A stretch of DNA of 64,000 nucleotides, from NCBI GenBank assembly GCA_044222185.1, contig JBGANV010000004.1, positions 96,001 to 160,000 on the forward strand, given 5' to 3'. The stretch comes from Planctomycetota bacterium (lineage in GTDB: Bacteria; Planctomycetota; GCA-002687715; CAIWVZ01). Of this stretch, positions 513 to 64,000 are shown one piece after another. The notes under the pieces were generated by a model that was not told the DNA's origin, did no database searches, and worked only from the letters and a program-made list of their open reading frames with translations. Every line of letters starts with the position of its first letter. Position 1 is the first letter of the stretch. A program made the position numbers and the translations under genes.

Positions 513-1808
513 CTACCGTGACGCCTTGGGGCGGAGGTAGCCCGGCGTGTCGTCGCGAGCGGCACGCGGGTGTAAACACTCGGCGGGACGTGGCGTCGTG
601 ACGAGTTCGAACGCGATGCCGAGGGGATAGTCTCCCGCGCGCGGTGCAACGACGCCGTTCGCGTCGTACGGCAACCCGAACGCCGTCCCCACCGCCAGCA
701 TGTCGAAACGAGTGATCGCCATCTTCGCGCGATCCACCTCGATGAAGCCGAGGATCGCGGGGTCGTAGGACTCGGGTTTTCCTCCTGTCGTTTCGGCGAG
801 GTGCGCGACGCCTTCCAAGCGCATCGTGAGCCGGTCCGCGCGCGCATCTTCCACCGTGAGCCGCAGGCGGATGGCAGCGGGCTGAGCCGTGGTGAACGCC
901 GTGTGCTCGGAGAACCCGCGATTGGGGTCGAGGTGGAAGCGCGCGAGGCGGAGGAGGAACGATTCAGGCACGGGGTAGGACTGTCCTGCTAGCGGCATGG
1001 CAGGGATCAGCGAGCGCCACTCGTTCAGCGGCACCCACATGAAGTCGTTGTGAGCTTCCGCATAGCGGTCGGCCTGCATCTGCGTGGTCTTGGGAACGAA
1101 GTCGCGCAGGGATGCGTATCGCCACCCGCTCGGCTCGCGCGTGGCGAGCTGGCGATTGAACACGCGCAGGACCAGGGCGCCCGCGGGCACGGCGAGAGCC
1201 GTGCGTTTGACGTCCTGCCGGCCTGTCGCGGCGACCATCACCGATCCCGCCAACCGTTCGGTCGGCGGCAGTTGGGCCCACTCGTTCAATGCGGCTTTCA
1301 GCGTCCAGTGGAGATCGGGCGCTGGGAACCGGGGCCGATTGAGGCGGACGCCGCTCGCGGTGACGACGCAGAGCGACCCCGACGCCGTACCGGTCACGCA
1401 ATCCGTCGCGCGGATGAACTCCGAGTCCTCATCCAGGAAGTCGTGGCGCTCGCGGCGCGCGTCGACTGCGACGGCGATGAACTGATCCTTGATGAGTTGA
1501 ACGGCGCTCTCGGTCCAGATCGCCGGCGCACGGCCGGCGGAAGCTGCGGCTCAACACGCTCCGATCGGGGGTCCACCGGCTCCGCCCCAGACCAGGATGG
1601 GTTTGCCCTCGGCTGCTGCCTGGCGGCGCGCCTCGGTGATGCTCAACTTCCAGTCGATCTGCCAGAAGCGCTGCTCATTCGGCTGCGCCCGGATCATGCG
1701 ATGGAGTCGATGGAAGTGTCGCGGCGAGATCGGCTCGGGATCGGTCTCACGCACCGGGAACGACGACACATGAACCAGCACGGCGAACAGGGGCAGCAGT
1801 CGGAACAT
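513..1808 (-). CDS. Candidate exported selenoprotein, 431 aa, Cys85-Sec86, N-terminal thioredoxin-like (SelN-like) domain plus uncharacterised C-terminal domain
   Basis: ATG at 1808 with GAAGGA RBS and signal-like MFRLLPLFAVLVHVSS; ORFs 1551..2027 and 513..1397 are in the same frame with one TGA (1551-1553) between them; read-through gives EARRQAAAEGKPILVWGGAGGPPIGAC-U-AAASAGRAPAIWTESAVQLIKDQFIAVAVD; SECIS-like hairpin follows. Confidence 0.8.
1521..1539 (-). promoter_or_regulatory. Putative bacterial SECIS element
   Basis: mRNA: UGA + 11 nt + stem CGCCGGC, loop CGUGC, stem GCCGGCG; G then U at loop positions 2-3. Confidence 0.7.
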
Positions 1809-54372: not shown

Positions 54373-57300
54373 GTGACCGCGTCAGCCGGAACCAAGCGTG
54401 AGATCGGACGAACACACGTGACGGAGGCGGCTCTGTTCCAAGACGACGAGGCGTTCCTCGACGGCATCCTCGACGAGGCGTTGGAGCGCCTCGCAGCGGG
54501 GTCCGACGTCTCCGTCGATGACCTGATCGCCGGCCGATTCCACCTCCGCGGCCACGTTGCCCAAGTGCTCGCGATGGCGCAGGCCGTTGCCGTGCGCCAC
54601 GCACCGACGACGGCGACCGTCACCGGGTACGACGTCATCCGAGTCGTTGGCGAGGGCGCCATGGGCATCGTCTACGAGGCGCGGCATCTCGCCCTCGATC
54701 GACACGTTGCCCTCAAGGTCCTACCTCCCGCCGCAGCTCGATCGCGGTCGGCGCGGGAGCGTTTTCTTGCCGAGGCACGAGCCCTCGCGAGCCTGCGCCA
54801 CCCGAGCGTCGTGCAGATCTACGACGTGATCGATGAGGGGGCCGTGTGCGCTTACGCCATGGAGCTGGTCGATGGCTGGTCGCTCGCCGAGATTCTCAGA
54901 GCGGCCGAGGACTCCGTCCCGCTCGAAGACGTCTGGCGAGGTCTCGCCGCGGAGCCGCCACCGGGGCGGGGCGGTGACTCGATCATCACGTTCGTTTGCC
55001 GCGTCGGTGTCGCCGTGGCACGCGCGCTCGGCGAGGTTCATCGTGCGGGGCTCCTTCATCGCGACGTCAAGCCGTCGAACGTCTTGATCCGGCGCGACGG
55101 AACGGCGCTTCTCTCGGATTTCGGTCTGGTGCGCGACGTCGACGCGGCGTCGCGTACCGAGAGCGGGCAGTTCCTCGGAACGATCGCCTACGCCGCGCCC
55201 GAGCAGCTTCGCGGCAATGCGGCGGAGATCGGCCCTGCGACGGACGTGTACGCGCTCGGCGTCACCCTCTACCACGCGCTGACGCAGCGATTGCCGTTCC
55301 GCAGTGATTCTCCCATGAGCCAGCTCCGGGCGATCGAGTCTGGCGCGTTGACTCCAGCTCGCCGCGTCAACCCGAGGTTGCCGCGCGACCTCGAGACGGT
55401 CGTTGCGAAGGCGATGGAGCCCGACCCAGCGGCGCGCTACCGGTCGGGCGACGATCTCGCCGACGAGCTCGAGCGCGTCCTGCAGCTTCAACCCATTCGC
55501 GCTCGCCCTCCGGGGCTTGCTGCGCGGGCCCTGAAATTCTCCCGCCGGAACCGGCTGGTGCTCCTCGCCGCGGCCCTCGGGGGCATCGTCGTGATGGTCG
55601 TGGCGATGGCCTTGTGGTTGCGCGCCGAGGAGTTGCGCGCACGGCCTGCTCGGCTCGGCCAGCAGTTGGCGCTCGCCCGCACGGCGCTGCTCGACCCCAG
55701 GTTCGGGGAGCGCACGTTCGTCGCGGAACACGGTGGCGCTGACCCCGGCACGCTTCTCCTTCCCGTCGCGGCGGCCGATGAGGCGCTCCGCCACTACGAG
55801 GCCGCACTCGAGCTCGATCCGACGCAAATCGATGTGCGCCGCGAGCGGGACGTCGTCGCGTTCGCGCGTGCGAGGTTGGGGGCGGCGACTCCTCTGGCCG
55901 AGCGTGAGATCTCCGATGCCACGGGCGGCGATCGCCGGGCCGCCGGACTCCTCGCGTTTCTCGTCGGACGTGCCGATACGTGCACGCGCTTCTGGGACGG
56001 CTTGGACCTTGCTCCGAGTCCTGGCGACCCGCTCGTCGACCTCGCGCTGGGCGAGCTCTACCTGATCCGCGATCGTGGGCCGGCGGCCTATCTCCGGCTC
56101 TTCCGAGCCCATGAGGCGTTTCCCAAGGCGGGTTTCATCGCCGTGGATCTGGCCGACGCCGCACGGATGAGCGGGGACCTCTCGACGGCAGAGCGCCTGC
56201 TGGGCCGAGCGCGTCAGCTGATGCTTCAGGATCCCTACGACACGATCGTTCGCGTCGAGGCCGACTTGCGCGCGGCGCAGGGACGTCGTGCAGAGGCCCG
56301 GGAGCGATACGAGTCCATGGCCAAGAACCACCGGGCACCGACTTCGCGCTATCGGTACGCCCAGTTCCTCGAGCAGCAAGCGAACCCCGTCGACACCGAG
56401 CGTGCCATCGAGATCTACCGCCGGTTGGTCGAAGCTCATCCCGCCATCGCGACGTATCGCGCGGCACTCCGGCGTTCGGCAACGACGTGGTGGAATGGAC
56501 TGAGCTTCGACGGACGAAGCGACGTGGTCGCCCGTGGCTTGCTCGGGAGGTGCGAGGTGAGTCTCCCGGCCCTCGTGGCCAGCCTCTCGGCGGTCGACGA
56601 CGTCCACGCCAACGATTCTGCAGCAGTCCCGGTCGGCGAATCCTCTCTCGACTCCAGACACGTCGTTCCCATGGACATTTCATTCACGCTGGAGGTCTCG
56701 AGCATGACTCGTTCACACCTGGCAGGGCTCACGAAGCCCATGGCGCATGCGCTCGGCCGACTCGCCCTCTTGGCCGACTCCGTGCCAGCTGCGCCCATCA
56801 TCGAGCGCCTGATTCCTTTGGGGCGGCGGGGGCTGGCGTTTTGTGTCGTGTGCCTCGTCTCCGGGTTGATGGCGCCGCGCGCCATGCCACAGAACCAGGC
56901 GTGGTGCTACGAGTTCGAGGCCTGCCAGGGCGCGTCACTGCCGAATGCGCTCGATCCCACAAACATCGGACTGCTCAACAACACGGGTAGCTCGGCAGGC
57001 TCGCTCTACTCCGTTTCGAATGGGGCGCTGCATCAGACGACCATCGGTGCCAGCGCCGGCTGGGCCGAGTTCTATGGTGGGGACATCAGCTATTGGGTGC
57101 CCGCGATCAACCCACCCGCGACGTCCGTGAGTCTGAACTTTGCACAAGACTTCATCATGGAGGCGCGGATACGGGTTGCGACCCCGCCGGCCCCACCAAG
57201 CGGGACGCCGTACGGCGGTGTCTTCATGGAGTTCCTGGATGGTCAACGCCAGTACGCGCTGGGGATCGGGGCGTCCGGAATCACGGTGACGACGAGTGCC

Positions 57301-57957
57301 TACACGCTCTTCTCGCAGACGGTGCTCGGGAGCGGATGGAATCCGGCGACGTTCCATACCTACCGCTTGAGCAAGGTCGGTGGCCAAAGTGTCTACTCAG
57401 TGGCTATCGACGGAGTCGTCGTGCAGTCGTCCATCCCGGGCGCCGTGGTCGCGGCCAATCGATACTTCGGTTGGGGGAAGGGCGCACAGAGCACCAACCA
57501 GAACGCGCAGGCGGATTGGGATTTCGTCCGAGTCTTCAACGGACCCGGCATCATCGCGCTTTCGGCGCCTCCGTCCGTGGTCGTCAGTGGCCCCGGTTGC
57601 GGCGGCATCGGCTCTTGGCCCATGCTTGGTGCCAGCGCTCCCGTGCTCGGTGCTCCGATCGAGTTCGCGCAGAGCGGGGCGCCTCCGGGATCCGTGAGTT
57701 CCCTCGTAGCGAGCTTGACGCCAGCCGGCCCACTCAGCTTGCCCGGAGGCTGCGCCGTCTACGTCGACGTTGCGACGATGACCTCCCTCGGCAGCCCGTC
57801 GTCGAACGCCGCCGGAGCCTGGTCGATGTGCACGAGCCTCCCGTTTCTTCCCGGTCTCGCCGGGGGCGCTGTCGTCGTTCAGGCCGTGACGATCGACCCG
57901 TCGACGCCCGTGGGCTTTCAGTTGTCCAACGGCCTCAGCGTGACCCTCGGGTTCTGA
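54373..57957 (+). CDS. Hanks-type Ser/Thr kinase + TM + TPR-like region + fused exported beta domain + recurring C-terminal domain
   Basis: GEGAMGIVY, VALK, HRDVKPSN, DFG, GTIAYAAPE, TDVYALG; tail SGPGCGG...VQAVTIDP...LSNGLSVTLGF. Confidence 0.92.
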   Translation: MTASAGTKREIGRTHVTEAALFQDDEAFLDGILDEALERLAAGSDVSVDDLIAGRFHLRGHVAQVLAMAQAVAVRHAPTTATVTGYDVIRVVGEGAMGIVYEARHLALDRHVALKVLPPAAARSRSARERFLAEARALASLRHPSVVQIYDVIDEGAVCAYAMELVDGWSLAEILRAAEDSVPLEDVWRGLAAEPPPGRGGDSIITFVCRVGVAVARALGEVHRAGLLHRDVKPSNVLIRRDGTALLSDFGLVRDVDAASRTESGQFLGTIAYAAPEQLRGNAAEIGPATDVYALGVTLYHALTQRLPFRSDSPMSQLRAIESGALTPARRVNPRLPRDLETVVAKAMEPDPAARYRSGDDLADELERVLQLQPIRARPPGLAARALKFSRRNRLVLLAAALGGIVVMVVAMALWLRAEELRARPARLGQQLALARTALLDPRFGERTFVAEHGGADPGTLLLPVAAADEALRHYEAALELDPTQIDVRRERDVVAFARARLGAATPLAEREISDATGGDRRAAGLLAFLVGRADTCTRFWDGLDLAPSPGDPLVDLALGELYLIRDRGPAAYLRLFRAHEAFPKAGFIAVDLADAARMSGDLSTAERLLGRARQLMLQDPYDTIVRVEADLRAAQGRRAEARERYESMAKNHRAPTSRYRYAQFLEQQANPVDTERAIEIYRRLVEAHPAIATYRAALRRSATTWWNGLSFDGRSDVVARGLLGRCEVSLPALVASLSAVDDVHANDSAAVPVGESSLDSRHVVPMDISFTLEVSSMTRSHLAGLTKPMAHALGRLALLADSVPAAPIIERLIPLGRRGLAFCVVCLVSGLMAPRAMPQNQAWCYEFEACQGASLPNALDPTNIGLLNNTGSSAGSLYSVSNGALHQTTIGASAGWAEFYGGDISYWVPAINPPATSVSLNFAQDFIMEARIRVATPPAPPSGTPYGGVFMEFLDGQRQYALGIGASGITVTTSAYTLFSQTVLGSGWNPATFHTYRLSKVGGQSVYSVAIDGVVVQSSIPGAVVAANRYFGWGKGAQSTNQNAQADWDFVRVFNGPGIIALSAPPSVVVSGPGCGGIGSWPMLGASAPVLGAPIEFAQSGAPPGSVSSLVASLTPAGPLSLPGGCAVYVDVATMTSLGSPSSNAAGAWSMCTSLPFLPGLAGGAVVVQAVTIDPSTPVGFQLSNGLSVTLGF

Positions 57958-61017: not shown

Positions 61018-61249
61018 GGTCGTCGCTCCTCGATCGAGCGTCGGCCGCCGGCGTCCGGTGGAAGCCGGCCGGCCAGTTGCCCGACGCGTCGTGTGACTCC
61101 GGTTCTACCTGCCAAGCCTCGGGTGCACGGGCCCACGGCGGGTCGTTCCGCGTCCGCCCGTGGTTACCGTCACGGCGCGGATCCGGTTGGCGGGTCCGGC
61201 GATCGCCCATCGATGCCTGACGCGAGCCCTTCGGCCGGAGCCCCTACGC

Positions 61250-61855
61250 ATGAGCTTCTGGGACACCCGATACAGCGCCTCCGAGTTCGTGTACGGCAAG
61301 GAGCCGAACGACTTCCTGCGACAAAGCGCCCCGCAGATCCCAAAGGGACCCGTGCTCGCGCTCGCCGACGGCGACGGCCGCAACGGCGTATTCCTCGCGA
61401 AATGCGGCCATGACGTCCACGCGGTCGACCTCTCCGCCGTCGGACTGAAGAAGGCCAGCGCCTACGCCCTCGCCGAGGGAGTCCGCATCACGACCCAAGT
61501 CGCCGATCTCGCCGACTACGCCATCGAGCCCGCAGCCTGGAGCGGCATCGTCTCCATCTCGGCGCACCTCCCGGCCCCGGTTCGTCGCGCCTTGCATCGC
61601 CGGGTCGTGAGCGGCCTCCGTCCCGGCGGCCTCTTCATCCTGGAAGCGTTCACCCCGCGACAACTCGAGATCGGTGGCGTCGGCGGCCCCGGACCGGCGC
61701 ACCCTGACTTCTACATGTCCCTGGCGGATCTCCGCGTCGAACTCGCCGGCCTGGAGTTCATTCACGAGGAGGAGCTGGACCGAGACGTGAACGAGGGAGC
61801 CTTCCATCGAGGCCGGGCTGCCGTCGTGCAAGTGATCGCGCGGCGACCTGCCTGA
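61250..61855 (+). CDS. Class I SAM-dependent methyltransferase (TehB-like)
   Basis: FWDTRYS, YGKEPNDFL, LADGDGRNGVFLA, LRPGG. Confidence 0.88.
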   Translation: MSFWDTRYSASEFVYGKEPNDFLRQSAPQIPKGPVLALADGDGRNGVFLAKCGHDVHAVDLSAVGLKKASAYALAEGVRITTQVADLADYAIEPAAWSGIVSISAHLPAPVRRALHRRVVSGLRPGGLFILEAFTPRQLEIGGVGGPGPAHPDFYMSLADLRVELAGLEFIHEEELDRDVNEGAFHRGRAAVVQVIARRPA

Positions 61856-62074
61856 CGTCCGATCCTTCGTGTCGCCTCGAATGCCGTTCGGACCCGCGGC
61901 TTACTTCCACCGCCGGCGAGCGTCTCCAGTGCCGGCGTTCCCGCCGCCGCCGTCCCGGGGGAATTGGCTTGCCAGCTTCGCCGTCATGCCCTTAAGCTCT
62001 TGGCTCAAAGGACTGAGCGAAGATCGCCGACGACGGATATGCGATTCGGTCGAACGATCGGAACGGACAACGAC

Positions 62075-63301
62075 ATGAGATCAATCCAATCGGCCTTGCG
62101 GATCGGGCTCTGGCTCACCGCGGCCGCCGGAGCGAGCTGGGCCCTGGGGTGTCCTCAGGGTGACGGCGCGACGAGCGGCAGCGCAACCTTCGAGCCACAC
62201 GCGGTCAGAACCTGGGACATCGTTCTCCCGGAGGAGCGCTTCCCCGATCTCGGTGCCGGCGTGGTGCTGCCTCACGACGGCGGCGATCGCTTCGCGGCGG
62301 TCGACGACGGCGGGCTCCTCAAGGTCGACATCAACGGCGACGGCACGCCGGAGGCGCGCGTCGAGGGGACGGCAGGCCACGTCACCTTCAGCGCCAAGAC
62401 GAAGGAAGGCGCGCCGTTGTCGTACTCGGTCCGCCTGACGCGCATGTCGGATGGTCCGTGGAAGTACGGCGTCGGCGGCGTCATGTCGGGCATGGTCGAC
62501 GGCGTCCAGGTGCGCCTCATCGACCAGAACCTGAATGGATCGTTCAACGACGTGGGCGAGGACGCCATCGTCGTCGGCCGCGAGAACGTGGCGAGCTATC
62601 TGTCGTCGGCGATCAACGTCAACGGCAAGCTGTACGCGATCGAGGTGGCTCGTGACGGTGCCAAGCTTTCGTGGAAGCCGTTCGAGGGCGCGACCGCCAA
62701 GGTCGACTTCACCGGAAGCTTCACGTGCAAGGCCCTGCTGCGCGCGGCGATCGTGAAGAGCGCTGACGGCAAGTTCTCCTTCAACGTCTCCAAGTCCGCC
62801 GGCGGAATGCTCGTTCCGGCCGGCGACTACACCCTGACGTCAGGGCAGCTCGCGCTTCACGACAGCGTCGCCACGTTGAAGCGCGGTCGCTCGAAGCCAT
62901 TCGCGGTGAAGGCCGGCGAGACGTTCACGCCCAAGTGGGGCGGGCCTGTGACGGCGGAGTTCGGCTTCTCCCGCATGGGGGACAAGCTCGTCTTCACGCC
63001 GTGGGACATCTGGTACTACGGCGAACTCGGCGAGGAGTACTCGAACTTCCTGCCGCTTGGCACGTCGCCCGAGTTCACGATCAAGAAGAAGGAGGGCGGC
63101 GAGACGATCGCCGTCGCCAAGTTCCCCGGGAACTGTTGAGGCTTCGGATTCACGCGGGTCGCCGTGAGCGTCCCCACCAACACCGAAGTCACGATCACGA
63201 TGAAGGCCGACAACTGGGCGTTCGGAACCGTCGAAGGGTCGCCGCGTGGCGCTGGATCCACCTCGGATCGCCCGCTCGGGACGGAGAAGCCTTCGCGCTG
63301 A
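62075..63301 (+). CDS. Candidate exported selenoprotein, 408 aa, Cys354-Sec355, with Dx[DN]xDG Ca-binding-like loops
   Basis: ORF stops at FPGNC-TGA (63137-63139), but the frame stays open for 53 protein-like codons (GFGFTRVAVSVPTNTEVTITMKADNWAFGTVEG...) to TGA 63299-63301; SECIS-like hairpin follows; signal peptide; DINGDG, DQNLNGSFND. Confidence 0.75.
63149..63168 (+). promoter_or_regulatory. Putative bacterial SECIS element
   Basis: UGA + about 10 nt + UCAC-GCG, loop GGU, CGC-(C)-GUGA. Confidence 0.65.
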
Positions 63302-63451
63302 TCGGACCGCCCGTTCGAGAATCGCTCCGCGGCGGAGTCGCTCCGCCGCGCCGACGTACGGAACCGCGCACTCTTCAGTCCCATGCTCGCCGCTGACCGA
63401 CGTGCCGTCGGTCGTCCATCCGTGTCACCAACCTCACTCAACGTGCCCGCG

Positions 63452-64000
63452 ATGCGCGCGCTTCGCTCCGGGCCAGGGATCGCCTCGTCGCTCGCCGCGG
63501 CGTTCCTCCTGGCCATCGTGTTCGGGCTGCTCGCATGGTCCGCTCGCGCCCAGGAAGAGGACCCTCCTCCTCCGCCGGCGGATCAGTCGACCGAGGACGT
63601 CAACACGTCCAAGACGGGGATCGCGAAGATCCCCGTGCGGGTCGTCAACGGCCGCCTCGTCGTCAACTGCCAGCTCGCCGCGCGTCGCCGCGTCCCGGTG
63701 AATCTGTTCATCGACCTGGAGGCGCCCGTGGGGCTGCTCCTCCACAACCGGGCCGCATCCGGCATCGTCGCCGAAGAGGACGACGGCACGCCGAACGTGA
63801 TCACGATCAACCTGCCGGACTTGAACATGAAGGTCCCGCAGCGTGAGGTCGGCGAAGAAGAACCCTTCGAGCGATTCACCAAGTGGTACTCGAAGGAGCT
63901 CGGGGAGCAGGCGGTCGTCGGAACGCTCGGCGCGAAGGTGCTGTCCCAGTACCACGTCGTCCTCGACCTCCGTCACGGGATGATGGAGCTGTCAGCGCCC
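63452..64000 (+). CDS. Exported protein with a retropepsin-like fold, catalytic motif degenerate (3' truncated by window edge; absent from the ORF track)
   Basis: Open frame from ATG 63383 or 63452 to the window end; signal ...WSARA-Q; IPVRVVNGRLVV, LFIDLEAP, VGTLGAKVLSQYHVVLDL. Confidence 0.7.
   Translation, partial: MRALRSGPGIASSLAAAFLLAIVFGLLAWSARAQEEDPPPPPADQSTEDVNTSKTGIAKIPVRVVNGRLVVNCQLAARRRVPVNLFIDLEAPVGLLLHNRAASGIVAEEDDGTPNVITINLPDLNMKVPQREVGEEEPFERFTKWYSKELGEQAVVGTLGAKVLSQYHVVLDLRHGMMELSAP

Follow-up and report, generated by a model that had tools for sequence, protein, structure and literature searches.

We herein describe a gene that almost certainly encodes a selenoprotein, located in a stretch of 64,000 nucleotides from a Planctomycetota bacterium (assembly GCA_044222185.1, contig JBGANV010000004.1, positions 96,001 to 160,000 of the forward strand; hereafter, the window). 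The gene occupies positions 62075..63301 (+ strand) and comprises 408 codons, including one in-frame UGA, before the true stop codon, TGA, at 63299-63301. Comparison with related genomes indicates that the in-frame TGA at 63137-63139 almost certainly encodes selenocysteine (Sec; Sec355), and that the protein represents what appears to be a new family among bacterial selenoproteins, widespread in planctomycetes and hitherto without annotation, whose members probably do redox chemistry. Our best explanation as a whole, i.e., an exported Sec protein with stem-loop-directed decoding, a redox centre and a role within an operon, is one that we hold with high confidence.

In the window, the open reading frame (ORF) starting at ATG 62075 is closed by TGT 63134-63136 and TGA 63137-63139 (...AKFPGNC). 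These two codons (63134..63139, + strand) correspond to Cys354-Sec355 in the motif F-P-G-N-C-U-G-F-G-F. The frame past the TGA opens with GFGFTRVAVSVPTNTEVTITMKADNWAFGTVEG and remains open for 53 codons (GFGFTRVAVSVP...VTITMKAD...; 63140..63298, + strand) until TGA 63299-63301; this C-terminal part would be translated only upon UGA decoding. ATG 62075 is the likely start of the gene, an alternative ATG being present at 62039, 12 codons upstream. A first-pass annotation, made from the window sequence alone, had reported the abrupt end at AKFPGNC-TGA followed by 53 stop-free codons, which the coordinates bear out, and had taken the stop-free, G+C-rich (at third codon positions; GC3) extension as a sign of read-through. 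The extension exists, but as evidence it is worth no more than chance: of the window's 1545 TGA triplets, 521 (34%) have at least 53 open codons downstream in DNA of 67% G+C, and GC3 is 0.83 in the extension vs 0.85 in the same frame beyond the second stop. The open frame, the GC3 and the minimum free energy (MFE) of the single sequence are thus uninformative, since none of them alone goes beyond chance; therefore, the case rests on the comparison with relatives.

With the read-through product as a query, 401 genomes of this phylum were searched in six frames, and 127 of them gave matches. Listed matches with E<=3.7e-53 numbered 54, of which 52 had an in-frame TGA and aligned as far as query residues ~388-407; the two without a stop came from genomes G262 and G363. 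When 30 fetched loci were translated across the stop, the aligned codon was TGA in 28, which continue into a conserved extension (consensus of these 28 loci, U-G-x-G-[FM]-x-P-V-[AT]-V-[SR]-V-P...I-x-[IV]-x-M...NWAFG-x-[IV]-x-G), and the other two had Cys at the Sec position (L022, C-C; L031, S-C). The residue before U was C in 24, T in two and U in two of the 28 TGA-bearing loci. A second scan, which covered named species-representative genomes, overlapped the first set and had 15 of its rows read by eye, yielded 75 loci, 71 of them covering the Sec region. The Sec position was U in 69 and C in two of these 71 loci; it was preceded by C (62), T (2), S (3), A (1) or U (2), the remaining locus (L087) being C-C. 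In our 32-row protein alignment (A3), 28 rows had U at this position and the other four (P0003, P0005, L022, L031) had C, and the read-through product was conserved with its relatives to residue about 390-407. Judging from these alignments, Sec alone would be the invariant residue of the motif, save for rare Cys forms. The loops that the first-pass annotation had likened to Ca-binding ones (DxDGDG and DQNLNG...D) are conserved motifs as well. The conservation past the TGA that the first-pass annotation expected from a translated search is thus present, homologs do not stop at the Cys at the DNA level, and the expected C-C homologs also exist (P0003, P0005, L022 and a further one, L052).

A protein database search with the read-through product returned 20 relatives besides the ORF of the window itself. 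Eighteen of them end exactly at the Cys, one bearing the NCBI name 'hypothetical protein', while P0003 (407 aa) and P0005 (397 aa) are full-length, with C-C followed by the conserved extension. A family profile run against a library of 1.84 billion cluster representatives matched 1375 proteins at E<=1e-3, of which 196 passed E<=1e-30. Of the 150 best-scoring representatives, only 17 extend beyond the Sec position and at least 64 stop exactly before it; six of the 17, which are those with a readable motif, have Cys at that position. Nearly every carrier is a metagenome-assembled genome (MAG) whose label places it in Planctomycetota (among them Rubripirellula, Fuerstiella, Aureliella, Pirellulaceae and Isosphaeraceae); Verrucomicrobiales or Verrucomicrobiia is the label of four carriers and 'Proteobacteria' that of one. 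On these sequence data, Sec forms dominate the family by far, and truncation of its members in public gene calls is systematic.

The genome possesses the complete machinery for Sec incorporation, which the first-pass annotation had put forward as a check. We found selA (487 bits), selB (330 bits, cut-off 242) and selD (371 bits), and, directly after selA, the gene for tRNA-Sec (selC, 74.7 bits); selA, selD and tRNA-Sec all score over their curated cut-offs as well. The selD gene itself contains one in-frame TGA, with its own element (stem GGCGCAG/CUGCGCC, loop GUC), which is comparable to the stem-loop described below. Moreover, selB was present in five of the five other TGA-form genomes tested. 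The idea that Cys forms mark genomes without Sec machinery was ruled out, as G262, G363 and G345 all have selB.

Further evidence for read-through is provided by natural fusions. The read-through frame of genome G128 (L065:7502-9085, - strand) comprises 528 aa with a single TGA, and continues in frame, beyond the extension, into a ResA/TlpA-like thioredoxin-fold domain with a WCGPC motif. This domain matches AhpC-TSA (4.3e-24) and Redoxin (4.1e-21) in Pfam, and ResA (2.7e-32) as well as TlpA, DsbE and StoA in NCBIfam. The same full-length fusion was found in all four Verrucomicrobiales-labelled MAGs tested (L144-L147), each with exactly one in-frame TGA and with WCGPC or, in one of them, WCRPC. 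Since a recognised domain lies in frame downstream of the TGA and has no start of its own, the fusions constitute an independent proof of read-through. Furthermore, their sequences point to a tie between the C-U loop and an extracytoplasmic disulfide-reducing pathway. A WCxxC thioredoxin fold was not found in the window protein by Pfam or NCBIfam; it occurs only as the fused domain in these five relatives.

Comparison of the nucleotide sequences revealed an RNA element at the position expected for a Sec insertion sequence (SECIS). When the 28 TGA-bearing loci were aligned over the 62 nt that begin with the TGA (A2), a conserved SECIS-like stem-loop emerged, GGGUCGC [CGUGA] GCG-U-CCCC in the window (63156..63175, + strand), whose stem starts 16 nt and whose loop starts 23 nt from the UGA; RNAalifold, unprompted, recovers the same helix. 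The consensus among relatives is 5'-(C)CGGUCGC [CGUGA] GCG-U-RCCG(G), with CGUGC as the loop where Ser is Arg. In A2, 87.5% of cells pair in the stem, vs 18-53% with the partner slid by 1-3 columns, and none of 500 shuffles attained the observed pairing or covariation score, a control in which relatedness is left uncorrected. Pair 25:33 is G-C in 19 sequences, A-U in nine and broken in none of the 28. At the protein level, this switch replaces Ala by Thr and is accompanied by a change from AGC/CGC to AGT/CGT that is synonymous or conservative; its A-U state is found in the clade with the FGGCUGGGF motif and separately in L017, i.e., with at least two origins. Pair 23:36 is U-A in 12, U-G in 10 and C-G in four sequences, and pair 20:39 is C-G in 23 and G-C in one, namely the window. 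Third-codon identity amounts to 0.81 within the hairpin vs 0.46-0.48 on its flanks, and such suppression of third-position change agrees with an RNA constraint acting on top of the one from coding. Stem-loops occur at the same place in the fused forms and in a paralog on contig 13 of the same genome (GUACAC [CGGGC] GUGUAC, a perfect 6 bp); the bulged U becomes paired in this paralog and in L145. A possible outer helix that would enclose the hairpin (63140..63190, + strand), formed by GGCUUCGG (63140-63147) with CCGAAGUC (63183-63190), is present in RNAfold MFE structures and is not predicted by RNAalifold on the alignment; we regard it as tentative and as a feature of this genome only.

The first-pass annotation had placed the SECIS in another hairpin, UCAC-GCG-[GGU]-CGC-C-GUGA (63150..63167), and had likened its spacing and loop to those of E. 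coli fdhF. This hairpin can be drawn in the window sequence, but it is not conserved: 55% of cells pair, with no compensatory change, and the inner pairs 18:26 and 20:24 form in one of the 28 A2 sequences. Hence, we rejected it in favor of the overlapping element at 63156..63175. The fdhF SECIS likewise lies within the coding sequence soon after the UGA, as a stem-loop that has a bulged U and whose apical loop contains G and U. The likeness holds in this generic sense (a GU-containing apical loop downstream of the UGA), but not for the GGU loop, as the conserved loop in the window is CGUGA and starts 23 nt past the UGA.

Structure prediction suggests that the extension is an integral part of a domain. 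The AlphaFold model built from the 32-row alignment (mean predicted local distance difference test [pLDDT] 86.6, predicted template modelling score 0.81) is all-beta and has three parts (residues ~30-205, 205-285 and 288-395). In the third sandwich, strands 344-349 and 362-365 are joined by a Gly-rich loop of lower confidence (block pLDDT 63) that holds the C-U pair; strands 362-365, 372-380 and 384-393 (block pLDDT 84-92) belong to the extension, which supplies the last three strands of this sandwich and a tail. According to the model, a product ending at the Cys would lack three strands and would thus be an incomplete domain. The beta-strand pattern that the first-pass annotation read from the extension agrees with these strands, and the C-U motif indeed lies near the C-terminus in the sequence, as it had stated, but in the model it sits in a loop inside a domain. 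The N-terminus of the window protein and of its relatives looks like an export signal (~26 residues in the window, MRSIQSALRIGLWLTAAAGASWALGC; 62075..62152, + strand), as suggested by the sequence and by the N-termini of relatives in the 32-row alignment; AlphaFold assigns pLDDT <50 to residues 1-29. A possible lipobox, ALGC, is not kept in the relatives, which have mostly AxA-Q type ends.

The window protein could not be assigned to any described family. Pfam and NCBIfam scans gave no families at E<=1, in keeping with the absence of a thioredoxin-fold signature noted earlier, and a PDB sequence profile search returned only chance-level antibody light-chain matches (E 0.004 or worse). A search of the ESM Atlas with the natural C-C homolog P0003 found only unnamed Planctomycetota 'hypothetical protein' clusters (344-353 aa), and Foldseek found only generic tandem beta-sandwich matches with TM-scores of 0.20 or less. 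Comparison of the third domain (~291-395) with many FN3 domains by VIA-align gave Z 5.3-6.3, below the informative level of the tool. As a separate observation, four Sec-free distant relatives (L047-L050) carry the three-domain module as the C-terminal part of 700-900 aa proteins, with an equivalent loop that has no C-U; in L049 and L050, inspection by eye shows an N-terminal segment rich in Cys (CxxC...CxC), together with a hydrophobic stretch and an extended charged region.

Table 1 of a 2026 review (PMC13188914) comprises 119 prokaryotic selenoprotein families or subfamilies, 114 of which are tagged with Pfam, TIGRFAM or NCBIfam (NF) models; the remaining five (Trx-like, CopZ-like, BtuF and Fe-S proteins) carry cd tags in four cases and a PTHR tag in one. 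The review also describes prokaryotic selenoproteins as mostly thioredoxin-like (PMC13188914). The window protein showed no library match at E<=1 to the 114 Pfam-, TIGRFAM- or NCBIfam-tagged families, and the other five are set apart by their differing folds. Hence, the earlier suggestion of an undescribed selenoprotein family agrees with the lack of a Pfam or NCBIfam model and with a place outside the 119 tabulated families, for five of them by fold only. We also considered and rejected the GOS families: NCBIfam models of GOS_B and GOS_C exist and are not matched by the window protein, and GOS_A, in the source text available, was reported with 2 Sec vs 155 Cys sequences, unlike the window family. 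No description of the family was found in the literature searched. One 'hypothetical' planctomycete candidate, which may or may not be a member, is listed without its sequence in Table S9 of PMC4807772. From the sequences, the unusual traits of the family would be a non-thioredoxin fold, the near-exclusive use of Sec, U-U variants, a distant C-x-x-U clade and fusions to TlpA-like domains.

The gene appears to be the first of a conserved operon. Its downstream partner, c1 (63383..64000, + strand, running off the window; 817 aa, 0 Pfam families), lies next to the Sec gene, downstream and on the same strand, in 19 of the 29 other short loci examined by tblastn and in 10 of 15 long loci of 16-18 kb each. 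In the long loci, clustering gave the order Sec protein, c1 (~800 aa; 10 loci), c2 (~500 aa; 8), a MoxR AAA+ protein (6), DUF58 (6), BatA-N/VWA (7) and c6 (5); c1 and c2 belong to no known family. In the genome of the window, MoxR (PF07726) was confirmed by Pfam and DUF58 (PF01882) was assigned by clustering with a Pfam-tested ortholog; a BatA/VWA gene was not seen within the 18 kb examined. The FGGCUGGGF subfamily instead adjoins a tricorn-like S41 peptidase, with the Sec gene before that of the peptidase. A hint that c1 might be an 'Omp28-related selenoprotein' (NCBIfam, 13 bits, E 0.048) was far under the cut-off and was dropped.

Taken together, these results suggest the following mechanism. 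The UGA at 63137-63139 is almost certainly decoded as Sec by SelB, tRNA-Sec, SelA and SelD, a part of the explanation that is well supported, with the stem-loop inside the coding sequence (63156..63175, loop CGUGA) directing the insertion. The 408-residue product would be exported as a three-domain all-beta module presenting the C-U pair in a flexible Gly-rich loop, F-P-G-x-C-U-G-x-G-F. Its reactive centre outside the cytoplasm would be the selenolate of Sec, which upon oxidation may form a selenenylsulfide with the neighbouring Cys354, and the Se-S bond would be reduced by a ResA/TlpA-type extracytoplasmic thioredoxin, which in some lineages is fused to the same polypeptide. As the product of the first gene of a conserved operon, the protein may supply the redox-active or oxidant-sensing/scavenging part of a MoxR-DUF58-VWA envelope system. 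We infer export, selenenylsulfide chemistry, TlpA-type recycling and the operon role from sequence, and the view of Sec as an extracytoplasmic selenenylsulfide centre is modelled on the GCUG end of large thioredoxin reductases.

The large (mammalian-type) thioredoxin reductases have a C-terminal Gly-Cys-Sec-Gly centre whose selenenylsulfide is reduced by a dithiol centre. The window protein resembles them in its vicinal, Gly-flanked Cys-Sec pair in a flexible segment, with selenenylsulfide chemistry to be expected, and many family members read exactly G-C-U-G (FGGCUGGGF, FTGCUGEGF). Unlike these enzymes, it has no FAD/NADPH oxidoreductase domain (0 Pfam matches), its C-U occurs in a beta-sandwich loop, 53 residues before the end, rather than at a penultimate position, and it is predicted to be exported, with a likely reductant of the ResA/TlpA type. 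To the ResA/TlpA/DsbE oxidoreductases it is linked by the C-terminal fusion of such a domain to the Sec module in five genomes; the window protein itself is without that domain and would be a client or partner rather than a member of that group. MoxR-DUF58-BatA/VWA operons are known as 'Bat', or aerotolerance-type, operons. The window gene likewise heads a cluster with MoxR, DUF58 and BatA-N/VWA (BatA/VWA in the loci of relatives), but two other conserved proteins, neither of them from a known family, are encoded in between. In the literature searched, no selenoprotein was described within MoxR-DUF58-VWA operons.

Several observations weigh against the explanation that we favor. The local RNA fold at the UGA is no better than that of shuffled sequences (z 0.64), and the hairpin of this genome, with its fourth pair mismatched (3+3 bp), is weaker than that of most relatives. 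The relatives are kin, so that counts of loci do not represent independent events. VIA-align detected only generic FN3/Ig-like sandwiches (Z 5.3-7.0), and, according to the tool, Z <8 may mean a common arrangement only. The operon of the window encodes no redox partner, as c1 has one invariant Cys and c2 none. T-U, S-U and A-U forms exist, i.e., the vicinal Cys is not invariant; since this Cys is replaceable, a selenenylsulfide with the neighbour cannot be obligatory. Finally, several CU-motif families (SaoL, HgcA, MbdU and CopZ-like) are named metal or organometal proteins in the table of the review (PMC13188914).

The last two of these points feed the strongest alternative, in which the Cys-Sec pair is a ligand for soft metals or metalloids (Cu(I), Hg, Zn, selenium or tellurium species) and the protein an extracytoplasmic metal-binding or metal-sensing module; we consider it unlikely, though it deserves attention. 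In its favor, the vicinal Cys can be replaced (T-U, S-U, A-U), or the pair can be doubled as U-U, and a gene for a TehB-like methyltransferase lies just upstream in the window (Pfam 1.4e-4). However, such a gene stands beside the Sec gene in none of the 29 other loci, the protein has no NCBIfam match to the CU families mentioned, and the natural fusions bring in a disulfide reductase of the ResA/TlpA type and no metal-handling domain. The CU-motif families of the review (SaoL, SaoC, HgcA, MbdU, KCU-star and the Csac_0668-type) share with the window protein a Sec directly after Cys, an origin in comparative genomics and a mostly unproven function; they differ from it by the lack of sequence relation, by another fold and genomic context, and by contrast with the almost entirely Sec form of the window family (PMC13188914).

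Much less probable is that the TGA is a true stop, the downstream frame being either a separate small gene or the product of rare near-cognate read-through (Trp/Cys). Gene callers do end 18 of the 20 database relatives at the Cys, GTG 63164 could start a 45-codon ORF, and the hairpin is modest in this genome. Nevertheless, conservation begins with the first codon past the TGA, ahead of any start codon; Cys-containing homologs are continuous proteins; the three downstream strands would, in the model, complete a domain; and in five genomes a whole thioredoxin domain follows in the same frame. The Sec machinery is complete here and selB was present in every other TGA-form genome tested, and the covariation seen at the SECIS position indicates an RNA element. 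A pseudogene or an assembly error, i.e., a Cys codon altered by nonsense mutation or by miscalling of a base, seems scarcely credible: TGT/TGC is one base change away from TGA and the MAG-like assembly is in 16 contigs, but the same TGA recurs in 52 of the 54 best listed matches and in 69 of the 71 loci, and two genomes have two TGA in a row at this place.

Given the exported Sec protein that we favor, members of the family in Planctomycetota, and in a few Verrucomicrobiota-labelled MAGs, would be mis-annotated without their last three strands. As the family is almost exclusively in the Sec form, it may be overlooked by methods that lean on many Cys homologs; the text on deep-Sep likewise states that such cases can be missed. 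The family would also widen the fold range of selenoproteins by an exported all-beta protein with a thioredoxin reductase-like C-U loop, natural U-U variants and TlpA-type fusions, and would link selenium to the poorly understood MoxR-DUF58-VWA operons in an experimentally addressable manner. Going further, we speculate, as a possibility that we would not yet bet on, that there is a superfamily without the thioredoxin fold in which Sec sits in an Ig/FN3-like loop with a varying partner (C-U, U-U, T-U, C-x-x-U) and which forms the redox-sensing or scavenging head of MoxR-DUF58-VWA ('Bat') systems. If true, this would offer a first biochemical handle on the role of these widespread operons.

The variants on which this speculation draws include tandem in-frame TGA codons at the Sec position, FPGS-U-U-GSGM and FGAS-U-U-GSL, found in two subfamilies (L026/L098 and L037/L093); judging from sequence, such U-U pairs could form a vicinal diselenide. 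In the distant clade represented by L051 (G362:C21), the ORF at L051:2461-3648 (- strand) ends in ...GTMCLS-TGA and its next 39 codons read GGNPDDYSGG...SDWQ, which gives a C-x-x-U variant with its own 7-bp hairpin (CUACUCC GGC GGAGUAG) 17 nt past the TGA. GTMCLS or GTMCLG also forms the C-terminus of several proteins in the library of cluster representatives.

The same genome carries further Sec candidates. The contig-13 paralog (G000:C13:52767-53894, equal to L067:7879-9087 and downstream, - strand; 35% identity) reads ...RFGGC-U-GGGFKEYTGRVP..., and its neighbourhood differs, the c1 and c2 clusters not being seen there. The other candidate of the first-pass annotation, at 513..1808 of the window (- strand), is a 431-aa protein with U86 in ...GGAGGPPIGAC-U-AAASAGR...; it has no NCBIfam match, and in a set of 200 genomes of the phylum an in-frame TGA is present in all seven non-self matches at E<=1e-20. 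The two proteins of the window are unrelated (BLASTP E 1.5), as the first-pass annotation had claimed. Its wider proposal of a large unannotated exported selenoproteome in this lineage was probed in part: two families account for at least three Sec genes without annotation in this genome, including the contig-13 paralog.

Two other genes upstream of the Sec gene may be mentioned. The one directly upstream (61160..61855, + strand) encodes an S-adenosylmethionine-dependent methyltransferase with a marginal Pfam match to TehB (tellurite resistance; 21.8 bits, cut-off 20.4, 1.4e-4); we rejected it as a link to selenium, given its absence from the 29 other loci. The other, about 4 kb upstream (54373..57957, + strand), encodes a Ser/Thr protein kinase of 1194 aa (Pkinase 8e-40) that also matches TPR weakly.

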